64,000 bases of DNA from Myxococcota bacterium (GTDB lineage: Bacteria > Myxococcota_A > UBA9160 > SZUA-336), in contig CBDFGR010000003.1 in NCBI GenBank assembly GCA_965247115.1, positions 1,376,001-1,440,000 of the forward strand, read 5' to 3'. The position numbers and the translations under genes were made by a program. The notes beneath the pieces were generated by a model that worked only from the letters and a program-made list of their open reading frames with translations, did not search any database and was not told where the DNA came from. Within the stretch, counting starts at the first letter, position 1. Each line of letters starts with the position of its first letter. Of the stretch, positions 38,076 to 49,598 are shown in pieces.

Positions 38076-38215
38076 GGTGCTGCCGCCCCTCTCGATTGAT
38101 GCCCGTATTGGACCACACGATCCCGGACCTGGCTACCCGGGCGATCTGCGGATGCCCCGCCGAGCTCGTGACCCGCACGCTGAGCATGCGCGAGCTCAGG
38201 ACTAGCGTGATCCTG

Positions 38216-39131
38216 ACTGCCCCCGGGGGTAGTAGTTTCTTACAGAAAGAGCAAGAAAGTGCTTGACAGGTTTTGAGAAAGACACAAATGCAGGTTCCCA
38301 AGACTATTTCGGACTCCAGGTTGCTCCGAGGACTCGGTGAGCTCGTGGCAAAGAGTCGACAGGACGAGGCGGATCTGCTCGCGTGCATTGCGGAGGTAGA
38401 TCAGCGCAAGCTTTATCTCGGACAGGGCTACTCTTCGATGCATCGGTACTGCACCGAGGTGCTCCACTTCTCGGAGGCGACGGCCTTTCACCGGATCGGC
38501 ACTGCTCGCGCGTCGCGCACATATCCGCTCCTCCTCGAGCGAGTGCGTGAGGGCGCGCTTCACCTGTCGGGTGCGAGCCTGCTCGCCCCCAGGCTCACTC
38601 CGGAGAACCACGCAGAGCTACTCGACCTGGCGCGCCACAAGAGCAAGCGCGCGATCGAAGAGCTTCTGGCCAACCGCGCGCCGAAGCCGGATGTACCGGC
38701 GCAGGTAAGGAAGCTCCCCGATCCTAAGACGGCTTCTGCTCTCCGGATGCCCGCGGAGATCTTCGATCGAGCCCTCACTTTGCTGCTCGAAGACGCGAAG
38801 CGGAGGAAGTTCGCCCGGACGGCGAGACCCCGTGCTCGGTCGACGGCCTCGCAAAAACCTGCGTCTAGGCATATCCCAGCGGAGATCAAACGCGCTGTCG
38901 TCGCACGGGACGGAGGTCGGTGTGCGTTCGTCGGATCGAACGGTCGCCGCTGCGGCTCCTGCGACTTTCTCGAGTTCCACCACCTGGATCCCTGGGCCAG
39001 GGCCAAGCGCCACGCGATCCCCCGAATCGAGCTGCGCTGTCGAGGCCACAACCACTACGCGGCGTTGGAGGACTATGGGGCTGCGTACATGGCGCGCTTC
39101 GCAGGGCGAGAGCACTGCCCCCGGGGGCAAT
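38216..39131 (+). mobile_element. Putative HNH element copy 1, bounded by C5G5-core palindromes
   Basis: ACTGCCCCCGGGGGTAGT (38216-38233) and ACTGCCCCCGGGGGCAAT (39114-39131) share 14 identical nt. Confidence 0.6.
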
Positions 39132-39154
39132 CGGACGTAAAGCCGCAGGAATGA
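38288..39154 (+). CDS. HNH endonuclease-domain protein (DUF222-like N-terminus), shorter internally than copy 2
   Basis: EVDQRKLYL.QGYSSM.RYC; RHIPAEIKRAVVARDGGRC...C...EFHH...CRGHN. Confidence 0.85.
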   Translation: MQVPKTISDSRLLRGLGELVAKSRQDEADLLACIAEVDQRKLYLGQGYSSMHRYCTEVLHFSEATAFHRIGTARASRTYPLLLERVREGALHLSGASLLAPRLTPENHAELLDLARHKSKRAIEELLANRAPKPDVPAQVRKLPDPKTASALRMPAEIFDRALTLLLEDAKRRKFARTARPRARSTASQKPASRHIPAEIKRAVVARDGGRCAFVGSNGRRCGSCDFLEFHHLDPWARAKRHAIPRIELRCRGHNHYAALEDYGAAYMARFAGREHCPRGQSDVKPQE

Positions 39155-39186
39155 CGACAACCGCGCGCAGCGGATCGGGTCCTGAC

Positions 39187-40158
39187 TCACTCCGCGGTGA
39201 GGGTGACAGTGATGCTGTCCCGGTGAAGCCCGCCGAGGCTTCCGGAAAGTGATCCGATGGTCACCTCGATCTCGTACACATCGCCTCCTGGCCCCGTCAT
39301 GTCAGATGTGGACGAGGCGATGGGGATCGGCGACCCGCTCGTGAGATCCGCTGGGACACCGTCGACCTCGAGGGTGTAGGGGACCGAGCTACGCAACGAA
39401 GCGTGTGCCATCGTCCCCCGATTGTGGGACTGCAGGCTCACGTCAAAGCTCGTGTTGCCACGCGCGCGCAGGTCGAAGCTCAGGCTCTCCCCGCTGGAGA
39501 ACGTACCGAAGTCCAGCTCCTGCGAGACGTCCGCTGCGTTGAAGGGCGCCCCCGTATCCACGAGCGAGACCTCGACCATCTTGGACGCTCTGGCTCGATG
39601 GTGCTTCGTAGCGCTCTGCCGGGGGACGTAGACATCGCCCACCTCCTCGTGCAGGTGAAAGCCGAGTCGGTCCTGGTAGCGACTGTTCGAGCCGGGCACC
39701 ACCTGCCCGGCGGGGATGGACCAGTAGTAGGTGTGCCTGTGCGCCTCTTGCTTCGCATCCACATCGGTGAACTCACCCGTGATCACCGCACGCCCGAACG
39801 TCATGTCCATCAGAATATTCGCGAGCGAAGCCGAGTCGTGCACGTTGTATAGGAGCTTCCCCCGCGGCCGAGATAGCTCGCGAGGATCGAAGACTCCCGC
39901 CCCACCTTCCGAGATACCGATCGCGTAGCGGCAGCTGCCACCTCCCGTCTTCCGCACACGGATCTCGACGGGTTGTACGTACTGTGCAGCGTCGAAGCAG
40001 TCGTAGCTGCTTCCCCCTCCTCGCCAATCGACGGGGTCCATGTCCGTCAGGTGGATCCGACCGCAGCCCGTCTGCGCGCGCGCCGGCAGCGAGATGACCA
40101 GCGCCGCACAAATCGAGAGCCCCAGCCTTCCGGCTACCCTTCGCGCCTGCTTGATCAT
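39187..40158 (-). CDS. Probable pilus tip adhesin (two-domain subunit)
   Basis: Signal peptide (ARA-Q); C-terminal G.H.DSITVTLTAE pilin strand; last gene of the usher operon. Confidence 0.7.
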   Translation of the reverse strand: MIKQARRVAGRLGLSICAALVISLPARAQTGCGRIHLTDMDPVDWRGGGSSYDCFDAAQYVQPVEIRVRKTGGGSCRYAIGISEGGAGVFDPRELSRPRGKLLYNVHDSASLANILMDMTFGRAVITGEFTDVDAKQEAHRHTYYWSIPAGQVVPGSNSRYQDRLGFHLHEEVGDVYVPRQSATKHHRARASKMVEVSLVDTGAPFNAADVSQELDFGTFSSGESLSFDLRARGNTSFDVSLQSHNRGTMAHASLRSSVPYTLEVDGVPADLTSGSPIPIASSTSDMTGPGGDVYEIEVTIGSLSGSLGGLHRDSITVTLTAE

Positions 40159-40177
40159 CGCCGAGGTCTCCTTTCGT

Positions 40178-42712
40178 TCACAAACCTGGAAATGGAAGCT
40201 CGCCCACGTCGTACAGACCGGTGGTACCCTCGGGAATCTCGAACTCGATCGATCGTCCCGGAGCGAAGTGCAGACTGAGCTCGTAGCGTCCCGGACGCAG
40301 CCCTCCACGGCTGAACTTGCCCTTCCGGTTCGTAAAGAGGACGAGCTCCTCACGGGGCTCTCCGAGTGCTCTCACCACACCCGCCTGGAGGCGCACCGGC
40401 TCCCCATCCATGGTCAACCTGCCTCGCACGACGGCCATCGCGTCCTTGCCGACCCGGATCAGGAGACCGCTCTTGTAGGTTGGCCGAGTGGCGAAGAACT
40501 CCTCTCCGAGGTCAAAGCCCGGAGGTAGGTCCGGCGCGTCGATGGCAACCGCACGGATCTGATAGGGAACCAGGTTCGGAAGGACGGCCGGCCCGAGGCG
40601 GTCGATCTGGACGCCTCCCCCGCCGGAGCGATCCACGCCGATCGTCTTGCCAGCGAGGCTCTTGTGCCGGGCCACCAGCGCAAAGCTCTGGGAGATCGGG
40701 CGCGAGATCGCGAACTCTCCGCCTGCGAACGCCAGAGCGCTGGACACTCGCACCGACGTCCGGTGCTCGTCGAGCCCTCTCGCTGTTCTTGCGGAGGTAG
40801 AGCGCTGGAACAGCTCCGCCTCCAAGCGCGAGCCGACGTGTTGGAGGGAGCCCGCGAGCTCGTACTGCTCGGGCCTACGCGATACACCAACACTGGTCGC
40901 AGTTCCGCCGATGCTCCGACTGGGTGTTCGTTGCCACTCGAGCTGCGTCGAGTGGTCGGTCGTGTCGTGGTTCAGACGCACGGTGTGATTGCGCTCGCGA
41001 TTCGTCCAGGTGACCGTCACGAACGCGCTCTGCTCCGGGCGCTCACCCGAGGCCAGGGTGCGATCCAGGCTGAGCTCCACCTCCCAGTCGCGAAACAACC
41101 TCCGCCGCAGCGACAACGACATCGTGCTGCTGTCAGACGTGTCGCCCCTTCCGAGCGCGTAGGCTGTGGCAACGCTGCCCCGGACTCCCGTCGACCAGAA
41201 TTCCTGGCTGACCGAAGCCGAGAACTCGTACGCCGTGGGGTTGTCGGGAACGGCACCGCCCACACCCGTGAATCTCCGCGACCTCGACAGCGCCGACACG
41301 ATCCATCGTCGCCGATTCTGGTTCTGCGTCGTTCCGTCGTAGTACTCGTACTGCAGTCGCCCCGCGTGGCTCGCCCCGGCGTCGTCGTCGTCGCTCAGGG
41401 CCACATCTGCGCGCAGCGAGCCCCACTCGCTCGCGAAGACGGCCTCCAACCCGAACAGGCGCCGCCGCCTGTCCCCTTGCAGGTTTGCGCCGAGCGTCAG
41501 CCCCTCGCTCAGGCCGTAGCGATGAAAGAGCGAGTAGCCAAAGTTGTCCCGGTCGTAGCGAATCACGTCACGCTCGAATGTGGGTACGCCTGCCGCGAGC
41601 GAGAACTCGCGCGTGCCCACGGCAAGGAGCCTGGGCTCGAACGAGAGTCCGAAGTGAAGCTCGCGCTCGCGCCCCAGGCTGTCCCGCATGCGAATCAGCA
41701 CGTCGTTGATCCCGGTCCCGAGCCGAAAGTCGCGAAGGTCGTAGCGACCCGGGAGGAGCTGCAGGCTCCGGACCAGCCGCCCGTTCACGATCACCTCGAC
41801 TTGCGAGGGCAGGTCCAGGGTGAACTCCTGGGAGCCTGCGGGCTCTACGACGCGATACGGCTGGAGATCGAAGTTCGTTGCGACCGTGAGCCCGCCAAGC
41901 GCCTGGCGACGCTGAAAGCCAGCGGTCTCGTAGGCGAGGTCGCCGAGCTGGACCCGGATCTGGCGTTCCGGGAGATCCCGAACCAGCCGCACCTCTCGTC
42001 GCTTCCAGGGGAAGCGCGCGTCCTCTTCGGCAGAGACCGCCCCTTCCAACACCCAGTCATGCAGGTTTGCAGCGCCGTCGAGCTCGAGACGCATGGGCTG
42101 CAGCCCCCTCTTCAGAGCCGAGGAGGTGGTGCCAATCCAGTCGAACGCGCCGCGCGCGTTGAGAAAGGCGCTGTAGGCCTGGGGCTCGACCTCCACTGCC
42201 GCAAACACCGAAGGCTGGCCTCCGCGGAGTCGGATCACTCGCAGCCGGCTCAGCTCGGGTGGGACCGTCACCGCGACGCTGAGGTTGCTGCGGTCGAAGT
42301 CTGCCACCAGACCGACCTCCATGAGGGCGGCAAGCGACACGTAGCCGTCCGCGTCTGCGGCGCGAGCGATCCTGTTCAGAAGATCGGGCCTCAGGGTCTC
42401 CCCGAGCAGCACCAGGAGCACGCTGCTGCGCAGTCGCACCCGCACGAGATCGCCTGCGACGCGTGCCGGGACAGCGCGCCGAAGCCTGCCGTCGACAATC
42501 ACGGGGAGCTCCAGGGCCAGCTCCTCGACCGTTTGGGAGTGACCAAACACCCTCTCGAAGACGGGTCCGGACTCGGTCCCTGGCTCCTGTGCCGCCGCAC
42601 TCCCCGAGCGAAGAGCTAACACGCCCAGCAGCAGTGCCAGCCAGATTCTGGCTTCAGAGAGCCGCCTCGGGGCAGGGGCTGCGGAACGACGCCTGGGGGG
42701 GAGGAGTGCCAC
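40178..42712 (-). CDS. Fimbrial outer-membrane usher
   Basis: 844 aa with signal peptide; QLGDL, PSQVEVIVNG...LLPGRY, YGLSEGLTLG; beta-rich. Confidence 0.88.
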   Translation of the reverse strand: MALLPPRRRSAAPAPRRLSEARIWLALLLGVLALRSGSAAAQEPGTESGPVFERVFGHSQTVEELALELPVIVDGRLRRAVPARVAGDLVRVRLRSSVLLVLLGETLRPDLLNRIARAADADGYVSLAALMEVGLVADFDRSNLSVAVTVPPELSRLRVIRLRGGQPSVFAAVEVEPQAYSAFLNARGAFDWIGTTSSALKRGLQPMRLELDGAANLHDWVLEGAVSAEEDARFPWKRREVRLVRDLPERQIRVQLGDLAYETAGFQRRQALGGLTVATNFDLQPYRVVEPAGSQEFTLDLPSQVEVIVNGRLVRSLQLLPGRYDLRDFRLGTGINDVLIRMRDSLGRERELHFGLSFEPRLLAVGTREFSLAAGVPTFERDVIRYDRDNFGYSLFHRYGLSEGLTLGANLQGDRRRRLFGLEAVFASEWGSLRADVALSDDDDAGASHAGRLQYEYYDGTTQNQNRRRWIVSALSRSRRFTGVGGAVPDNPTAYEFSASVSQEFWSTGVRGSVATAYALGRGDTSDSSTMSLSLRRRLFRDWEVELSLDRTLASGERPEQSAFVTVTWTNRERNHTVRLNHDTTDHSTQLEWQRTPSRSIGGTATSVGVSRRPEQYELAGSLQHVGSRLEAELFQRSTSARTARGLDEHRTSVRVSSALAFAGGEFAISRPISQSFALVARHKSLAGKTIGVDRSGGGGVQIDRLGPAVLPNLVPYQIRAVAIDAPDLPPGFDLGEEFFATRPTYKSGLLIRVGKDAMAVVRGRLTMDGEPVRLQAGVVRALGEPREELVLFTNRKGKFSRGGLRPGRYELSLHFAPGRSIEFEIPEGTTGLYDVGELPFPGL

Positions 42713-42730
42713 GACGGCGCGACGGCACCA

Positions 42731-43489
42731 CTATCTTCTGACCGCTCCATCGAAGTGGAAGGTCGCCTCGACGGGTCCGAAGGGGAGCTCTTGCGGCCAG
42801 GGTAGGAGAAAGCGTCTCTTGTGCCCGGCCAGGATGTTCTCTCCGCTCATACCAGCGAGCTTGTTCGGGCCGAGGTCGAGAGCAGCCGCAGCGTCCCCGT
42901 TCGCCTCTCCAGCGAGCGACAAGCTGAGATTACGCAGGATTGCGTGAGCCTGGCCGCGGTTGTGGAGCGTGACGGACAGCTGGCGCTCGCCGCTCGACTC
43001 CTCGGCAGCGACGTCCTGCAGTACAACGTCTGCTCGGACGCCGGTGGGCCGGACGTAGATCGAACCGATGTAGCGGACGAGGATCCTGACGGAGCCTCCG
43101 GACTCCTCCGCCGGCTCGAGGTCGACCGGAAGCTGCTCTGCGATGATGCGATAAGCCAGCTCGTGCTCAGGGTCCGCATCCCCGATCCATTGCACGCGGA
43201 CGATCTGACTCTGCTCGGGCTCGAGCACGATCTGCGTGGGGAAGACGACGAAGTCATCGTCTGCTTCGGTCAGCTCGTCGCTGCCGTCGAGATTCATGAG
43301 CCTGCGGAACACGCTGATCTCGACGGCGATCTGCTTGCCGGAGTTGTTCTCGACTCTGAAGGTCTGGTTCGCGCCGGGGCCCGACGGATCGAAGTCCGCC
43401 GTGAACGGAATGAAGCGAAAGGCTTCAGCGGGGAGCGGCGCGACGCACAGGAGAAGACCAAGGCAGAGGGGGAAGAGTCCTGCTCTCAT
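42731..43489 (-). CDS. Fimbrial periplasmic chaperone (PapD-like)
   Basis: Signal peptide; FVVFPTQIVLEPEQSQIVRV, ELAYRIIAEQLP, NRGQAH. Confidence 0.88.
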   Translation of the reverse strand: MRAGLFPLCLGLLLCVAPLPAEAFRFIPFTADFDPSGPGANQTFRVENNSGKQIAVEISVFRRLMNLDGSDELTEADDDFVVFPTQIVLEPEQSQIVRVQWIGDADPEHELAYRIIAEQLPVDLEPAEESGGSVRILVRYIGSIYVRPTGVRADVVLQDVAAEESSGERQLSVTLHNRGQAHAILRNLSLSLAGEANGDAAAALDLGPNKLAGMSGENILAGHKRRFLLPWPQELPFGPVEATFHFDGAVRR

Positions 43490-43525
43490 GGTCTTCTGTT
43501 TCGGCCCCACCAGGGCCACACTGAA

Positions 43526-43587
43526 GACCCGGCCGGCTGTGGTCAGGGCCGGCCGGGTCCAGGCTCAGGGTCGGTTCGAACCTGAGC
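43526..43587. terminator. Two stem-loops between the pilin and chaperone genes (mRNA stabiliser or partial terminator)
   Basis: Perfect 12-bp stem GACCCGGCCGGC/GCCGGCCGGGTC (43526-43559); second stem GCTCAGG/CCTGAGC (43563-43587). Confidence 0.55.
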
Positions 43588-43596
43588 TAAGTGTTC

Positions 43597-44118
43597 CTAC
43601 TTGGCGGCGATCGTGAAGGTAATCGTGTCCGTGTAGGTGTCGGCCTCGATGAAGCCGGGATTTCCGTACGAGATGTCCACGAGGTTCGCGGACCCGCCCG
43701 AGCCCGTGGGCGCGCTGGCATCGGTCACGGTCATGGCGGCACCGCTGCTCAGATCCACCCCCGTACCGCCGTACGAGAACGTGTACGCCACGCTGTCTGT
43801 GCTCGTAGGGCCAAGCGGCTGGAGCACGCTGCTGTTCGCGGATTGTGCGGTGACGGTGTAGCCGTCGGCGTCGTTGCAGGTCTCGTTGACCGAGCCGACG
43901 TTCAGAGCTGACTGGGCACTGGTTAGCGGCAGATTGTCTGCCACACCGGCGACCGGTGTGACGGAGACGTCACAGGCTGCGACCACTGAGCCTGAGAGAT
44001 CGAGATCTCCTGTACTGGCGGCAAACGCCGGCGTTGAACTTCCGAGCAGCAGGAAAGCCATGAGCAGACTGCTGAACCCGACCCTGGACCTATACGATGA
44101 GGATGACCAACAATTCAT
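43597..44118 (-). CDS. Chaperone-usher pilin subunit
   Basis: AFA-ASTGDLDLSGSVVAAC, ETCN..GYTV, C-terminal YTDTITFTIAAK; start uncertain (44142, 44118 or 44062). Confidence 0.8.
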   Translation of the reverse strand: MNCWSSSSYRSRVGFSSLLMAFLLLGSSTPAFAASTGDLDLSGSVVAACDVSVTPVAGVADNLPLTSAQSALNVGSVNETCNDADGYTVTAQSANSSVLQPLGPTSTDSVAYTFSYGGTGVDLSSGAAMTVTDASAPTGSGGSANLVDISYGNPGFIEADTYTDTITFTIAAK

Positions 44119-44241
44119 GCCAGCTGGTATCGGTAGCGCCATCCGTGAACTTTAGGGACAGCACTCCGAGCAGCCAGGCCCCGTGTCGGCCTCCGCCAGG
44201 AATCGCAATCAGCTTGTGGCTCTTACCGCTGCTGGTTCCTC

Positions 44242-44766
44242 CTACTTTGCCGCTACTGTGAAGACCAGAGTGTCCTCGTACGTGCCGCCAACCTGACTGG
44301 TGGCGGCCGCATACGAGACGGTGACCGCTTTCGTGACCCCTGCGGGACCCGTGCGGTCGGCCGTACTGGTCACGAGGACCGGACCGACTCCACTCAGATC
44401 CGCCTGGGTGTCATCGTACTTGAGCATGTAGCTGACGGCGTCGAGCTCTCCCAGGAAGCTCCCGCTGCCCAACGAAGAGACCTCGATCGTGTAGCCGGTC
44501 GGGCTGTTGCACGACTCTGTCACGGAGGCCACGGCAACATCCGTCTGACTGCTCGACAGATCCAGGGAAGTGGCAGCCTGCGTCGGATCCACCTGGATGC
44601 TGCAGGCCAGAGGAACCTGGCCGCGGAGCTGGAGCGCACCCGAATCCCCTGCAGCTGCGAAGCCAGGCAGCGAGACGCACACGCAGGCGACGACGCCCGC
44701 GAGCCACGCTGAACGCTTCGCGATGGGGAATGAGATTCTGAGGCTTTGGGGGGCGGGTGCGCCCAA
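44242..44766 (-). CDS. Chaperone-usher pilin subunit (paralogue of 43597-44118)
   Basis: GALQLRGQVPLAC, ESCNSPTGYTI, GTYEDTLVFTVAAK; in-frame TTG at 44766 lies 6 nt after AAGGAG. Confidence 0.8.
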   Translation of the reverse strand: MGAPAPQSLRISFPIAKRSAWLAGVVACVCVSLPGFAAAGDSGALQLRGQVPLACSIQVDPTQAATSLDLSSSQTDVAVASVTESCNSPTGYTIEVSSLGSGSFLGELDAVSYMLKYDDTQADLSGVGPVLVTSTADRTGPAGVTKAVTVSYAAATSQVGGTYEDTLVFTVAAK

Positions 44767-44772
44767 TCTCTG

Positions 44773-44867
44773 CTCCTTTCGGCAGCCGTTCGACCCGCCC
44801 GGATGTTCCGGGTTGGGGCACTGGCTTTGCGTCCCCGTGTCTCCACGGGTTTGCCTTTGTCGAGGAG
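44773..44867 (-). ncRNA. c-di-GMP-I (GEMM-I) riboswitch
   Basis: Minus strand CTCCTCGACAAAGGCAAACCCGTGGAGACACGGGGACGCAAAGCC...GGCTGCCGAAAGGAG shows the GGCAAAC / GNRA stem / GGGACGCAAAGCC / GGCTGCCG hallmarks. Confidence 0.88.
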
Positions 44868-45276
44868 ATGGACACCCGCGTCCACTCCCGACCCCCCGGT
44901 GTCGGCCGGGGGAGCCTTCTTGGAGACGTATCGGTACCGGGTCCAGCATCTTTAGTCGTTTGTTGGCCAGCAATGGAAACCTCCCGACGACTGTGCGCAG
45001 ATCCCCCCAAACAGCGAGAGGTTCAAGAACCGTTCCCGTATTCCCTAGATCAACGAACACCCGAGTTGAAGCGCGCGCTTCCGCCTACCGTTGCGCACCG
45101 GCGAGGGTGGGAGAAAAACAGGAAGGCGAGAAGCTCTCTTCCACAATGTGCCAGTCAGCTCCTCTCACTGAGTCGACTCTTGCGTCCACACGAGCGCCTA
45201 TACTCGCAGCTATGCAATGCGTTGCCATACTAGAAGCGCAGGCCACGGAAGTCGCGGCGAGCTTGAGGGGTCGCTC

Positions 45277-46119
45277 ATGAAGCTCAGCCTCAACCTGCGC
45301 AACTGGGGACCACAGGCAGAGCGCGAGCTCATGCTCGAGTGCGCTCGAGCTGCGGACGCGTCCGCGCTGGACACGCTCTGGCTCAACGACCACGTGGCCG
45401 TCCCGGCGGCAGCGGCCGCGCGCGCGGATCCCGACTTCGCGACCGGAATCCAGGTAGACATCCTCGCGACGCTCGCCTTCCTGGCAGGCGCCACCGAGCG
45501 CATAGGGTTGGGGACGGCTGTGCTGCTGCTGCCCTACCGGCCCGCGTTTCTCACGGCAAAGTGGGTCGCGAGCATCCAGGCGCTCGCTGGCGAGCGCCTT
45601 CGTCTCGGCGTCGGGACGGGCTGGATGCCGGCGGAGTTTCGGGTGCTCGGTGTGGAACGCCGTAAGCGCGGGGTGCTGACCGATGAATCGCTGGCGCTGT
45701 TGCGCCGCTGCTTCGAGAGCGACGAGCTAGAGCGGAACGGCGAGCGAATCCTGTTCCAGCCGCGCCCAGAGCGTCCGTCCATCTACGTGGGCGGCGCGCC
45801 CCCGCACGCCTTCCGCCGCGCCATCCTGTATGGGGATGGCTGGATCCCGGCAGGCGTCGAGCCCGAGGTCCTCGCAACCCAGATCCCCGAGCTGCAGAAG
45901 CTGGCGGAGGAAGCCGGACGGGACCCCCTCGAGGTCATCGCGATGAAGACGCTCCCGCTGGAGGATCTACCGCGCGCGGTCGACTACGCGGGGAAGTTCG
46001 CAGCGGTTGGCGTGGATCATCTCGTCCACACCCAGCGCTACGACAACGCCGCAGAGTACCGCCGCAACATCGACCTCCTCTGCGAGCGAATCCTCCCCGA
46101 GATCGCCTCGTCCGAATAG
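45277..46119 (+). CDS. LLM-class oxidoreductase (probably F420-dependent)
   Basis: LWLNDHV, TERIGLGTAV, RLRLGVGTGW, IYVGG, GDGW. Confidence 0.9.
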   Translation: MKLSLNLRNWGPQAERELMLECARAADASALDTLWLNDHVAVPAAAAARADPDFATGIQVDILATLAFLAGATERIGLGTAVLLLPYRPAFLTAKWVASIQALAGERLRLGVGTGWMPAEFRVLGVERRKRGVLTDESLALLRRCFESDELERNGERILFQPRPERPSIYVGGAPPHAFRRAILYGDGWIPAGVEPEVLATQIPELQKLAEEAGRDPLEVIAMKTLPLEDLPRAVDYAGKFAAVGVDHLVHTQRYDNAAEYRRNIDLLCERILPEIASSE

Positions 46120-46140
46120 GTCGGGCCTCAGTCGTCGGAG

Positions 46141-48132
46141 CTAGTTGCCCTTGCAAGTGCCGTTCTTGCAGTTGTTGGAGCAGCAATCGCTGTTGGAACT
46201 GCACGTAGCCCTCTTGCCCCCGCACGCCACGCACTGATCGCTACCCTCATCGCAGCCCAGGCCTGGGCACGGAGCGCTCCCGCTCTGGCAACTCTCACCC
46301 GAGCAGAGCTCGGCGCCGTTGCAGAACTGGCCGTCGTCGCACTCCGGGTCGGATGTGCAACCGCCATCAACGCCCGCACCACCGCAAGACCAGCCGCTCT
46401 CGGAACACCGCGAATCGCCGCAATCGGACAGGTCACCGTCGCAGCAATACCGGCCGCGAGGATTCCCGTTGGTCTTCTGTCGGCAGTCATTCGGACAGTT
46501 ACCGCAGTGTTCGCCCGCCTCGCAGGTTCCGTCGTTGTCGCAGGCCGGCGCATCGCATGAGTCGGTAGCCCCGTTACATATTTCGCCACCAGCGCAGGGG
46601 TCTCCGCTCGACTGACACGCTCCGCCGACACAAGTCTCGGTCCCGGTGCAGAACTGGCCGTCGTCACACTCCGGGTCGGTCGTACAACCGCCCTGGGGAT
46701 CGAGAAACGGGGAAACGGAATCCCAGTAGAAGGCGAGCGCACCATCAACTGTCCAGTTGTTGATCGAATCGCAGTCATCAAGACAGTTGAAGCCACAGCA
46801 ACCGGAGAGCTGACCGACCACCTCGCTTGCGCTGTTCAGAGCCGGCGAGCCGCTGCTGCCACCCATGGTGGCTCCGATCCGGTCCTCGCTGTAGATTCGT
46901 TCGCCGAGCGGCCACTGGCCGCATATCGGCGAAGTCGTGGTGACGTCGTGCTGCGAGTACACCTGCGGACCGAAGTTGGCGTTGCTGACCCTGTAGAGAC
47001 TCGCGCCATGGGTGTAGGCAATAGGAGAGTTATTCCAGCCGAGGAACGTGGCGCCAGCCGGAGGGGCCTCGTCAAGCGTCAAGAGCGTGTAGTCGCCAGC
47101 ACCTCCCGTTGCCACGACCGTGACACCGATGGTGCTAGCAGGCGGCGGCGTGCCGCCGGTTAAGAGGCTGTCGGGACACGAACCGCGACACGAATCCGTT
47201 GTGTAGTTGAAGAAGGTCTCCAGGTTCGAGATGTCCGAACTGACGCAGTGATTGGCCGTGAGGAAGTATGGGATCTGCGAAGCGCTATCCGTGTCCACCA
47301 GCAGCCCTCCAGAGCAGGTGTTGATGAACTGTCCAGTGATCCACTCCATCTTGGCGACGGCATCCTCTGCCGGCGCTGCTGGCCCCGTGTTCATGCAGTT
47401 CACGTCGACCACGCATGGAGCATTGTTCGAGCAGGGCCAGTTATCGTGGCTCTGCTCCCGCGGGCGTGGCGGTCGGCCGCGGATGTGGCCAACATCCGAG
47501 ACCGTGAAGGACATCTTTGGCCGGTCGTCAGCTGGCGCGTCGCCGCTGTAGCTCAGAACGACCGTGCCGGTGTCCGAGACTATCGAACGAGTCCAGAAGT
47601 CGCCGTCACCGTTGCGACCCTGCCCGACGTATGGCCCGTGCGCCTGGCCGTTCGGTCCGAGGAAGAACATCTCGGTGTTCTCGGGAAGCGAGAAGCCCGT
47701 GAAGTGCACGCGGATGGCCTGCGCGCCGGGAGACGTGACCGTCATCGCCCACTCGAAGCTCCCGTCCACATTCTGCCGGCCGACGCCGTGATTGAAGGCT
47801 TTCCCGAAGGGCTTTCCAACGAGCCTCTTGACGGACTTGACGACGCCGACGCGCAGCGGTGCGCTCCCGCTGGGGAACGGCTCGGCCAGATTGTCCAGAT
47901 CCTTCTGCGTGATGCCGACGCTGAGCGGCGTATGAGCCACGCCAGGGGGAACGATGGACGCGATCTCCTCGTGGAGCTCCCGCTCCCGCGCAGCTTGCTC
48001 GGCAATCGTCAGGCCCCCTCGTACCACCTCCGGAGCAGCACGTCGGTTCCCAACGCCCTGGGCGGCCGTTGGCGTCGGCAGGCCGAGGCAAATGAGAATG
48101 GCGAAGCCGAGAAAAGCAGAGATCGTGCGCAT
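46141..48132 (-). CDS. Secreted trypsin-like serine protease (lysyl endopeptidase-like) with Cys-rich C-terminal repeats
   Basis: Signal peptide and propeptide; catalytic triad in LTANHC, GDYTLL, GGSSGSP; two CTxDPECDDGQFCxGxExC repeats. Confidence 0.88.
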   Translation of the reverse strand: MRTISAFLGFAILICLGLPTPTAAQGVGNRRAAPEVVRGGLTIAEQAARERELHEEIASIVPPGVAHTPLSVGITQKDLDNLAEPFPSGSAPLRVGVVKSVKRLVGKPFGKAFNHGVGRQNVDGSFEWAMTVTSPGAQAIRVHFTGFSLPENTEMFFLGPNGQAHGPYVGQGRNGDGDFWTRSIVSDTGTVVLSYSGDAPADDRPKMSFTVSDVGHIRGRPPRPREQSHDNWPCSNNAPCVVDVNCMNTGPAAPAEDAVAKMEWITGQFINTCSGGLLVDTDSASQIPYFLTANHCVSSDISNLETFFNYTTDSCRGSCPDSLLTGGTPPPASTIGVTVVATGGAGDYTLLTLDEAPPAGATFLGWNNSPIAYTHGASLYRVSNANFGPQVYSQHDVTTTSPICGQWPLGERIYSEDRIGATMGGSSGSPALNSASEVVGQLSGCCGFNCLDDCDSINNWTVDGALAFYWDSVSPFLDPQGGCTTDPECDDGQFCTGTETCVGGACQSSGDPCAGGEICNGATDSCDAPACDNDGTCEAGEHCGNCPNDCRQKTNGNPRGRYCCDGDLSDCGDSRCSESGWSCGGAGVDGGCTSDPECDDGQFCNGAELCSGESCQSGSAPCPGLGCDEGSDQCVACGGKRATCSSNSDCCSNNCKNGTCKGN

Positions 48133-48319
48133 GGTTGCCTCGTCGAAGTTCCGCATCGTGAGGGAAAACGCGAGCAGTTACAAAGACTTAGGGGAGTATG
48201 AGCCCGCGATTTCCCGGTAGTCAAGACTGTACGGCCGCAGATCGGCGCGCCACCCAGACATCGGACTCGCGACGGATCCGCTGAACGCCTTTGATCTCGA
48301 GCGCATCGTTGTGCGGAAT

Positions 48320-49588
48320 AACTTCCCCCGGGGGAAGTTGGGATCTAAGAAATTTCTGGAAAGTCCCAGATTTCCGTTGACAGGTTTTCGAAAGCACAAC
48401 CAGTTTGCGTCTCTCGCGACCAAGATCCCGTTCTCTGGTCTAGGCACGGCGTTCTAATCATTCTCTTTCGCAGTTTTGGTTTCGGAGATCGCAGACAATC
48501 TCGATCAGGTCGTAGATCAGATCCTCCGACACCGAAATACGTCGTGTTATGTTCGAAAGGCAATGAACATTAGCCCCCTCGGACGTATGTCCAATGACGA
48601 GCTACTTCGTGCACTGGACAAGCTCGTAGCGACTAGTCGGAATGTCGATGCAGATCTGCTCGCTCACGTCGCTGAGGTAGATGCGCGGCGCCTTTATCTT
48701 TCGGAGGGCTGTTCCTCAATGTTTCGCTACTGCACGGAGGTGCTGCACTTCTCGGAGGCAACTGCGTTTCACAGGATCCACGTGGCTCGTGCTGCGCGCA
48801 GATTTCCGAGTCTTCTGGATCACGTTCGGCAAGGGCGGATCCATCTTGCCGGGCTGAGCTTACTCGTACCGCATCTCACACAGGAGAATCACGTCGAGCT
48901 TCTTGACATGGCGTACCACAAGAGCAAGCGCGCAATCGAGAAGTTCCTGGCGGAGCGCTCGCCAAAGCCCCGCGTACCAGCACTTGTCCGCAAGCTCCCA
49001 GAGACCAAGGCTGTGTTCGCAGGGCCGGAGACGTCGGACTTCCGCGAAACAAACGAGCAGCCGGCGCTTCGGGCTCCGCGCGCTCAGGCCGCCTCGCTGC
49101 CCGCACCTCGCTCTCAGAACTCCGCTCCACAACCACTCGGGCACCGGTGCTACAAGATCCAGTTCACCGCTAGTCAAGAGTTTTGCGACAAGCTTCGCGA
49201 AGCCCAGGCACTACTTCGGCATCAGCTTCCGGGCGGCGATCTCGCTCAGGTTATCGATCGCGCGCTTTCCCTGCTGCTAGCCGAGACACGACGGAGGAAG
49301 TTCGCGGAGACCTCACGACCGCGGAGCCGATCCGAAGACCGCACCAGCCTTGCATCTCGGCACATTCCGGCGGCAATCAAGAGGGCGATCGCTACGCGAG
49401 ATGGAGGCCGATGTGTCTTTGTCGGGCGGAACGGACGTCGGTGCCAATCAGCGGATTTCGTCGAGTTCCACCACCTGGATCCCTGGGCGAGCTCGAAGTA
49501 TCACTCGGTCGAGGGGATCGAGCTGCGGTGTCGGGCGCACAACCAGTATGCGGCGGATCGAGAGACTCAGCCTCCCCCGGGGGAAGCT
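48320..49588 (+). mobile_element. Putative HNH element copy 2, bounded by C5G5-core palindromes
   Basis: Perfect AACTTCCCCCGGGGGAAGTT (48320-48339) and near-perfect AGCCTCCCCCGGGGGAAGCT (49569-49588). Confidence 0.6.
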
Positions 49589-49594
49589 ACGTGA
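48563..49594 (+). CDS. HNH endonuclease-domain protein (DUF222-like N-terminus)
   Basis: EVDARRLYL.EGCSSMFRYC; YKIQFTAS...KLREAQALLRH; RHIPAAIKRAIATRDGGRC...EFHH...CRAHN. Confidence 0.87.
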   Translation: MNISPLGRMSNDELLRALDKLVATSRNVDADLLAHVAEVDARRLYLSEGCSSMFRYCTEVLHFSEATAFHRIHVARAARRFPSLLDHVRQGRIHLAGLSLLVPHLTQENHVELLDMAYHKSKRAIEKFLAERSPKPRVPALVRKLPETKAVFAGPETSDFRETNEQPALRAPRAQAASLPAPRSQNSAPQPLGHRCYKIQFTASQEFCDKLREAQALLRHQLPGGDLAQVIDRALSLLLAETRRRKFAETSRPRSRSEDRTSLASRHIPAAIKRAIATRDGGRCVFVGRNGRRCQSADFVEFHHLDPWASSKYHSVEGIELRCRAHNQYAADRETQPPPGEAT

Positions 49595-49598
49595 GGGG

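Follow-up and report, generated by a model that had tools for sequence, protein, structure and literature searches.

RAYT systems (TnpA-REP) are marked by a HUH/Y1 transposase domain, a GTAG/CGTC-type foot and a looped hairpin, and they consist of few genes and tens to hundreds of REP repeats. In classical homing, insertion disrupts the recognition site and the element spreads between alleles of one locus. In the Ssn system a nuclease gene lies between its own palindromic NTS/SRM repeats; at least one repeat is reported for 71% of ssnA genes and both for 42% (Chenal et al. 2025, PMC11893778). REP13E12 genes are described as gene-conversion hotspots without a defined function (PMC13061034) and 13E12 genes as LexA targets (PMC4181829). 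In this study, we analysed a stretch of 64,000 nt (the window) from the genome of a Myxococcota bacterium (G000; 5.17 Mb, 3 contigs), which holds two HNH nuclease genes, copy 1 and copy 2, each with a palindrome at both ends. Both genes belong to a large family of what are likely selfish elements, which would move without a transposase by palindrome binding and cutting. The mechanism towards which we lean has a predicted protein dimer bind the palindrome and make a nick or cut close to it, the relocation of the gene being left to host recombination. Our literature search found no account of palindrome-bracketed HNH genes of this kind, most subscription journals being outside its reach, and the family, which stands at the far edge of the repeat-nuclease-repeat layout, appears to be undescribed.

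The sequence CCCCCGGGGG occurs exactly four times in the window (38220, 39118, 48325, 49574) against 0.16 expected, and none of 100 shuffles reached four. One lies at each end of both genes, as the original prediction had it (20-bp units in Table 1). Pairing is perfect (10/10) only in the 48320 unit; it is 9/10 in the 49569 unit and 8/10 in both units of copy 1. The right-hand units are translated within the last codons, reading CPRGQ in copy 1 and PPGEA in copy 2, which was likewise predicted. The two proteins are paralogues with 50% identity (E 1e-104). Both leaders contain the TTGACAGGTTTT box. The further leader motif proposed to be shared, GAAAG-N-CACAA, derives in copy 1 from the ribosome-binding region, so that this part of the match is partly coincidence. 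Copy 1 is without about 195 nt of leader after ~38278 and has lost in frame about 70 residues of the linker and most of the RHH-like segment. Judged by these gaps, copy 1 is a deletion derivative and likely crippled; copy 2 looks whole. The 22-nt tail of copy 1 up to the stop codon is common to most copies of the subfamily, so the right end of copy 1 extends past the palindrome.

The predicted protein combines a ParB/KorB-like DNA-binding domain, an RHH-like segment and an HNH nuclease in a three-domain fold. The matches to ParB span the DNA-binding domain only and leave the N-terminal CTP-binding part of the models unmatched; the fold predicted there is a ParB-type helix-turn-helix (HTH), as in ParB/parS. 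HNH family matches are present in 51 of 74 members, among which GIY-YIG and RuvC have none. The histidine H302, the asparagine N325 and four zinc ligands are invariant in the HNH domain of the family, and the middle asparagine is missing from the G000 copies. No Pfam or NCBIfam match to a transposase, an integrase, a reverse transcriptase or a HUH/Y1 domain was found among the element proteins, in agreement with the absence noted earlier.

The description of the genes as DUF222-like holds at the level of profile-profile comparison, where the N-terminal domain and the HNH are homologous to DUF222-HNH (hhalign 97%, E 1.1e-10 against six actinobacterial proteins), but not for PF02720 itself, which has no match in G000 at its cut-off and matches 2 of the 74 members weakly (best E 3.5e-4). 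As a lead, a DUF222 label is attached to 42% of the members of one cluster in Atlas. The REP13E12 DUF222-HNH proteins (PF02720 + PF01844) resemble the present family also in being multi-copy and dispersed, whereas their middle region aligns poorly with it. At 30 DUF222 loci of Propionibacteriales families, the set to which this comparison was confined, a family-type palindrome was found once (not CCGG-centred) and the split leader spacing described below not at all. What we take to be a RecA-NDp-like promoter is present at 15 of these 30 loci, as compared to 2 of 120 loci of the present family. DnaA-box-like words were seen in 4 of the 30 actinobacterial leaders (L441-L473).

G000 carries 14 dispersed loci, E1 to E14 (tblastn), of which E1 and E2 lie in the window. 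All 14 have at least one palindrome and eight have both ends above the score threshold; five have one clear end, the other being degenerate or frameshifted, and E10 is without a left palindrome. A profile search retrieved 26,391 clusters at E<=0.001 and 7,447 clusters (50% identity) at E<=1e-30. A survey of the phylum yielded matches in at least 23 of 251 genomes, from one to eight or more per genome, a floor because the initial search was strict. We scored 172 loci (14 from G000, 78 and 80 further ones) with a palindrome threshold that was fixed only after the motif had been seen. An upstream palindrome was present at 64 of 128 loci with enough flank against 1 of 96 control windows, and a 3'-end palindrome at 62 of 136 loci against 0 of 105, the enrichment at homologue ends that had been proposed as a check. 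At least one palindrome was found at 69 of 100 complete loci and both at 27; these four counts precede the removal of 10 near-duplicates. The right palindrome begins ahead of the stop codon in 62 of 68 cases. Palindrome-linked members are known from Myxococcota, Acidobacteriota, Armatimonadota and Eisenbacteria records, and the search of plasmids, phages and viral contigs gave no family match. A Myxococcales-type clade with a C-terminal extension (L063, L073, L089, L092, L095, L096, L110, L113, L227, L233, L236) keeps the split leader and showed no palindrome; it may serve as a natural control or represent a domesticated branch.

All four palindromes of the window share the C5G5 core of the original prediction, which is a local variant and not the core of the family: other copies vary inside the frame AACT-N4-CCGG-N4'-AGTT, and one clade has a TCGA/TTGA centre. 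C5G5 occurs 23 times in G000, 13 of them at element ends, and the arms of the G000 copies are of the GCC, TCC, CTC/CTT or GGT type. That the arms are copy-specific and that each gene's own ends resemble each other proved correct for the family at large. At 30 two-ended loci, left and right arms agree in 7.43 of 8 variable bases against 3.57 after permutation (p 5e-5); within G000 alone (n=8) the agreement is 7.25 against 4.83 (p 0.002). Arm change is compensatory, being two-sided in five of eight pairs.

Such compensatory change is also what hairpins would produce. The palindromes may act as in Ssn or RAYT, as hairpins in single-stranded or cruciform DNA beside which the HNH domain would cut in incoming or replicating DNA, spreading the repeats and steering recombination. 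The repeat-gene-repeat layout is shared, the proportions with at least one or both ends (69% and 27%) are similar to the 71% and 42% reported for ssnA (PMC11893778), and lone copies sit at gene 3' ends. A site bound by a dimer predicts symmetric change equally well, and this dyad has no loop, its bases being fixed both at the rim and in the centre. In addition to an RHH-like segment, the protein has a ParB-like domain that is predicted to bind double strands, and lone copies are few (about eight strong ones in G000), not hundreds. We regard the hairpin explanation as unlikely.

Arms and proteins were compared on a quick tree of 82 proteins. The copies of the window's genus form one clade (SH-aLRT 93) and those of another genus fall in another; the clades mostly track phyla and the arms track the clades, with exceptions such as E8/E10 and E13. 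With the helix excluded from the tree, CC arms accompany histidine or lysine at residue 69 (E3 numbering): out of 10 independent pairs, 6.5 show this association against 0.1 (median p 0.016). Six further contrasts point in the same direction with too few informative pairs each, and all seven were picked after seeing the data. The proposed co-diversification of protein and palindrome thus stands in that arms follow protein clades; at the level of residues it finds modest tree-corrected support.

Empty alleles in relatives, also proposed as a check, were recovered. Contigs of runs X5 and X9 (two studies; two of four runs) join 48304 to 49596 via 31 nt, which contain one near-perfect palindrome of CTC type, unlike that of copy 2. 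Identity in X9 is 98% for the right flank but only about 92% for 3.4 kb on the left; X5 additionally has a filled allele (89%). The tract 44938-48304 is about 92% identical in X9 as compared to 98-99% in its neighbours, and part of it is replaced by other DNA in G002, a sister species; we take it for a recombined stretch next to copy 2. Each species was represented by one genome, that of G002 being 95% complete. Three of the 14 G000 sites are filled in the same orientation in G002 (E2, E4, E7) and one is occupied in the opposite orientation, its junction coinciding with the palindrome (E5). Two hold a remnant of another arm type (E1; E10, reversed), one a lone palindrome of another type (E3) and three a short spacer with no palindrome (E9, E13, E14); three hold other genes (E6, E8, E12) and one is not syntenic (E11). 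A further genome, G001, is empty at E8, and for two G002 copies the corresponding place in G000 shows no more than a lone right end or no element sequence at all. Elsewhere, homology of paralogues from the same genome often ends within ~13 nt of the palindrome, L082 and L117 are 98.4% identical with different flanks, and two E4-like copies of G002 (L033, L035) share the left flank on different contigs and look mosaic, with dS (silent divergence) 0.047 in the binding domain and 0.31 in the HNH. In L053, L104 and L119 the left palindrome is preceded by a second copy of the 20-25 nt that stand ahead of the right one, as a single crossover at a remnant would give. None of the findings named beforehand as speaking against an element (homologues without palindromes, C5G5 common at random intergenic sites, vertical conservation without empty alleles) came about, and mobility of the family is well indicated by these comparisons.

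Several observations weigh against this. No target duplication was found at the element ends, which are imprecise. The G000 paralogues are old, the listed pairs having a silent divergence (dS) of 0.47 or more, and there are no recent copies. The genomes of G000 and G002 differ about once per 4 kb anyway, and the empty sites are not polarised. The genes could be old, host-tolerated or domesticated nucleases, for instance damage-induced ones, with the palindromes as autoregulatory operators looped as in KorB and the patchiness due to duplication, gene conversion and loss. Purifying selection without young paralogues, the four sites filled in both species and the left palindrome lying mostly 36-79 nt upstream of TTGAC agree with this, as does the mosaic appearance of L048/L075 (dS 0.047 vs 0.31). 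The RecA-NDp-like promoters, as we name them, at half of the 30 actinobacterial relatives point the same way. So do the reported LexA targets among 13E12 genes (PMC4181829). Residence leaves unexplained the inversion at a palindrome, the arm swaps at the same site, the lone palindromes at empty sites, the palindromes in linkers, the cargo arrays and the 98.4% identical copies with different flanks; elements at shared sites also exceed their neighbours in silent divergence (dS 0.28-0.81). We judge it improbable that the genes are simply resident.

Lone palindromes had been proposed for counting as well. A strict scan of G000 gave 21 sites, six of them lone, against none in three 2-Mb Markov controls. 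All eight strong lone sites examined coincide with the 3' end of a gene (crude open reading frame (ORF) calls), and part of the lone sites are remnants of a left or right element end. In the reverse direction, a scan of DNA only for one palindrome variant gave at least 126 stretches, 80 of which were examined, several rows being the same palindrome pair viewed twice: 20 occupy the canonical place, left or right, with respect to a family gene, a further 8 are close to such a gene or within it, and 52 are lone, so that for this variant lone palindromes outnumber gene-linked ones. Among 46 lone sites with long flanks, 19 lie between convergent genes, 12 between tandem and 3 between divergent ones, 11 inside genes, and 1 is unclear (crude ORF calls). 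In three cases a family gene has an in-frame palindrome in its linker, and DinB, DUF922, glyoxalase, Imm32 and kinase genes stand between paired palindromes.

The 1.6 kb between two lone G000 palindromes comprise a DUF4160-HTH pair and a ParD-like gene together with an IS110 remnant; the same toxin-antitoxin block in G002 has three palindromes around other cassettes (Phd-like, VapBC-like). Palindrome-bounded cassettes behind an RND-type transporter gene (G000:C3:1479376-1481031; L158 14723-16434) contain toxin-antitoxin genes and IS110 remnants that differ between the two sister species. IS110 remnants within palindrome-bounded cassettes and IS5-type copies beside or inside several elements would fit a role of the palindromes as landing sites, used by other mobile elements (IS110, IS5, group II introns) or by a host recombinase, with the HNH gene as a passenger in trans. 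No such gene was noticed consistently beside the loci, whose neighbours were not surveyed systematically, while arm type tracks the HNH protein clade and, modestly, a helix residue, and the nuclease residues are conserved. A passenger gene is very unlikely in our view.

The leader is split. From the cTTGACAgGTTT box to a TGnTA box the distance is 168-174 nt in 85 of 122 loci, 170-173 in 81 of them, and no other distance was seen more than twice. The canonical -35/-10 distance would be 23, so the pair is about 149 bp too far apart. Across the family the spacer showed no sequence conservation, coding or RNA structure. Its A/T and GC steps recur at ~9.75 bp with a power of 0.185 (n=64), the null reaching 0.032 at most; the periodicity also holds without the window's genus (n=56), and this was not a host-wide pattern on checking. 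The spacer is likely wrapped or bent DNA; in our reading a protein may hold it in a wrap that gates the promoter or brings the ends into line.

Concerning the mechanism that we favour, the predicted dimer would contact the 20-bp palindrome via two ParB-like HTH domains, and the HNH domain would nick or cut near it, host repair and recombination relocating the gene. A break at a lone palindrome or remnant may be repaired from another copy; such ectopic homing would lead to the same site being reused by other arm types. Crossing-over between the symmetrical ends would give inversion, or excision leaving one palindrome, and a symmetric site lets both orientations be expected at one locus, as at E5 and E10. 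Any DNA between two palindromes, such as toxin-antitoxin cassettes, might be exchanged likewise, and the split promoter may hold the nuclease low until some signal. A wider proposal is tentative and, to us, somewhat less than probable: a new class of mobile elements free of transposase and recombinase, in which a ParB-HTH/RHH/HNH protein reads its own palindrome via a variable recognition helix and a wrapped spacer of ~150 bp gates the promoter or aligns the ends. The element would home, invert, excise, seed lone palindromes and shuffle cargo in an integron-like manner in thousands of lineages, and would offer a testable model for the unexplained REP13E12 genes.

The prediction of a REP/RAYT-like or homing-like HNH element is right in that cognate palindromes bracket multi-copy HNH genes, but the elements are neither RAYT nor classical homing. 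RAYT genes share the flanking cognate palindromes, lone ones at gene 3' ends (19 of 46 between convergent genes here) and IS110 remnants beside palindromes. The present family differs in that no HUH/Y1 domain, GTAG/CGTC-type foot or looped hairpin was found, and in G000 with 14 genes and about eight strong lone copies; RAYT membership was rejected on the missing HUH domain, the many gene copies and the few lone repeats. Ssn shares own flanking palindromic repeats, co-varying pairs, lone repeats and an insertion-sequence-like layout without a classical transposase; its protein is described as a small monomeric GIY-YIG enzyme of one domain, which cuts single-stranded DNA close to hairpins, and its repeats number up to hundreds (PMC11893778). 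Here a three-domain HNH protein of ~350 amino acids is multi-copy, with a loop-less dyad, a right repeat inside the gene and a fixed-length leader, and Ssn membership was rejected because the nuclease is HNH and not GIY-YIG (74 members). Unlike free-standing HNH homing endonucleases, filled sites keep two intact palindromes and copies occupy many unrelated loci in both orientations, which led us to reject classical homing; none of the family was found on phages. An insertion sequence was rejected as well, since there is no transposase or recombinase gene, no target duplication and no extension of terminal inverted repeats (p 0.13; longest common outer word 4.9 vs 4.6 nt, n=30). OMEGA/HEARO was rejected for want of a RuvC match and of a guide-RNA signal, the elements having no Rfam match and the leader no fold or covariation signal. 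With ParB/parS, Noc/NBS and KorB/operator the family shares the predicted DNA-binding fold and a symmetric site in which arm variation goes along with helix residues; it differs in that a nuclease is joined to the fold and that the sites enclose the gene of the protein. Integron arrays share cargo genes, including toxin-antitoxin pairs, that lie between repeated sites and differ between sister species; here no tyrosine integrase was found in the element, the sites are perfect 20-bp dyads and not attC, and the arrays are short.

After the HUH-type RAYT and the GIY-YIG-type Ssn, a third unrelated protein chemistry behind the repeat-nuclease-repeat layout would follow, and it would be the first such system with a dedicated, predicted duplex-binding domain. 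The family gives named candidate substrates for the homologues of DUF222-HNH/REP13E12, known only as recombination hotspots without function. The protein-arm pairs that occur naturally in it lend themselves to tests of how ParB-type helices read DNA and are a possible source of 20-bp-specific nickases. A separate puzzle is posed by the -35/-10 pair, which a periodic spacer of non-conserved sequence keeps too widely spaced.

Table 1. Coordinates of the two gene copies and associated features in the window
Feature	Position	Strand	Remarks
Left palindrome, copy 1	38215..38234	.	GCC-arm type, 8/10 pairs
TTGACAGGTTTT box, copy 1	38263..38274	+	Usual ~150-bp spacer and -10-like box deleted after ~38278
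Copy 1 gene, 288 aa	38288..39154	+	ParB-like domain and HNH kept; ~70 residues of linker/RHH-like segment lost in frame
Right palindrome, copy 1	39113..39132	.	Within last codons
22-nt tail up to stop codon, copy 1	39133..39154	+	Common to most copies of subfamily
3' ~31 nt of luciferase-like monooxygenase gene	39155..39185	+	Whole gene at same site in sister species G002
Left palindrome, copy 2	48320..48339	.	TCC-arm type, perfect 20 bp
TTGACAGGTTTT (-35-like) box, copy 2	48377..48388	+	
Fixed-length spacer, copy 2	48389..48543	+	In the family, length conserved, sequence not; ~9.75-bp A/T periodicity
Extended -10-like box TGnTATGTT, copy 2	48544..48553	+	171 nt after TTGAC
Copy 2 gene, 343 aa from ATG 48563	48563..49594	+	Predicted ParB/KorB-like HTH, Pro-rich linker, RHH-like segment, zinc-binding HNH nuclease
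Right palindrome, copy 2	49569..49588	.	Within last codons; 10 nt ahead of convergent typA stop
Stretch swapped for 31 nt with one palindrome of other arm type	48305..49595	.	Empty allele, contigs of runs X5 and X9

An element that we take to be of the IS5 family occurs in G000 ~28 times and has at least 40 matches in G002; it is found inside E14 (C2:504345-505630) and beside several elements. A separate ~100-bp repeat near E6 (L134 4766-4867), probably unrelated to the 20-bp palindrome, has more than 30 matches in G002. Many palindromes of Acidobacteriota records have a further motif ~5-25 nt away, the short and hairpin-like GGCAC..GTGCC (L119, L307, L308, L313, L315, L318, L334, L352, L353, L367, L368, L370). 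A GTGCG-like word follows one lone palindrome (L162 3500-3530). An unidentified insert, possibly a retroelement remnant, precedes the left palindrome of L038 (4010-4360). Between the two copies in the window, a c-di-GMP-I-GGC riboswitch at 44777-44864 on the minus strand (at gathering score, E 4.9e-12) lies upstream of a chaperone-usher pilus cluster at ~39187-44142 (PapD_N, Usher, SCPU-like).

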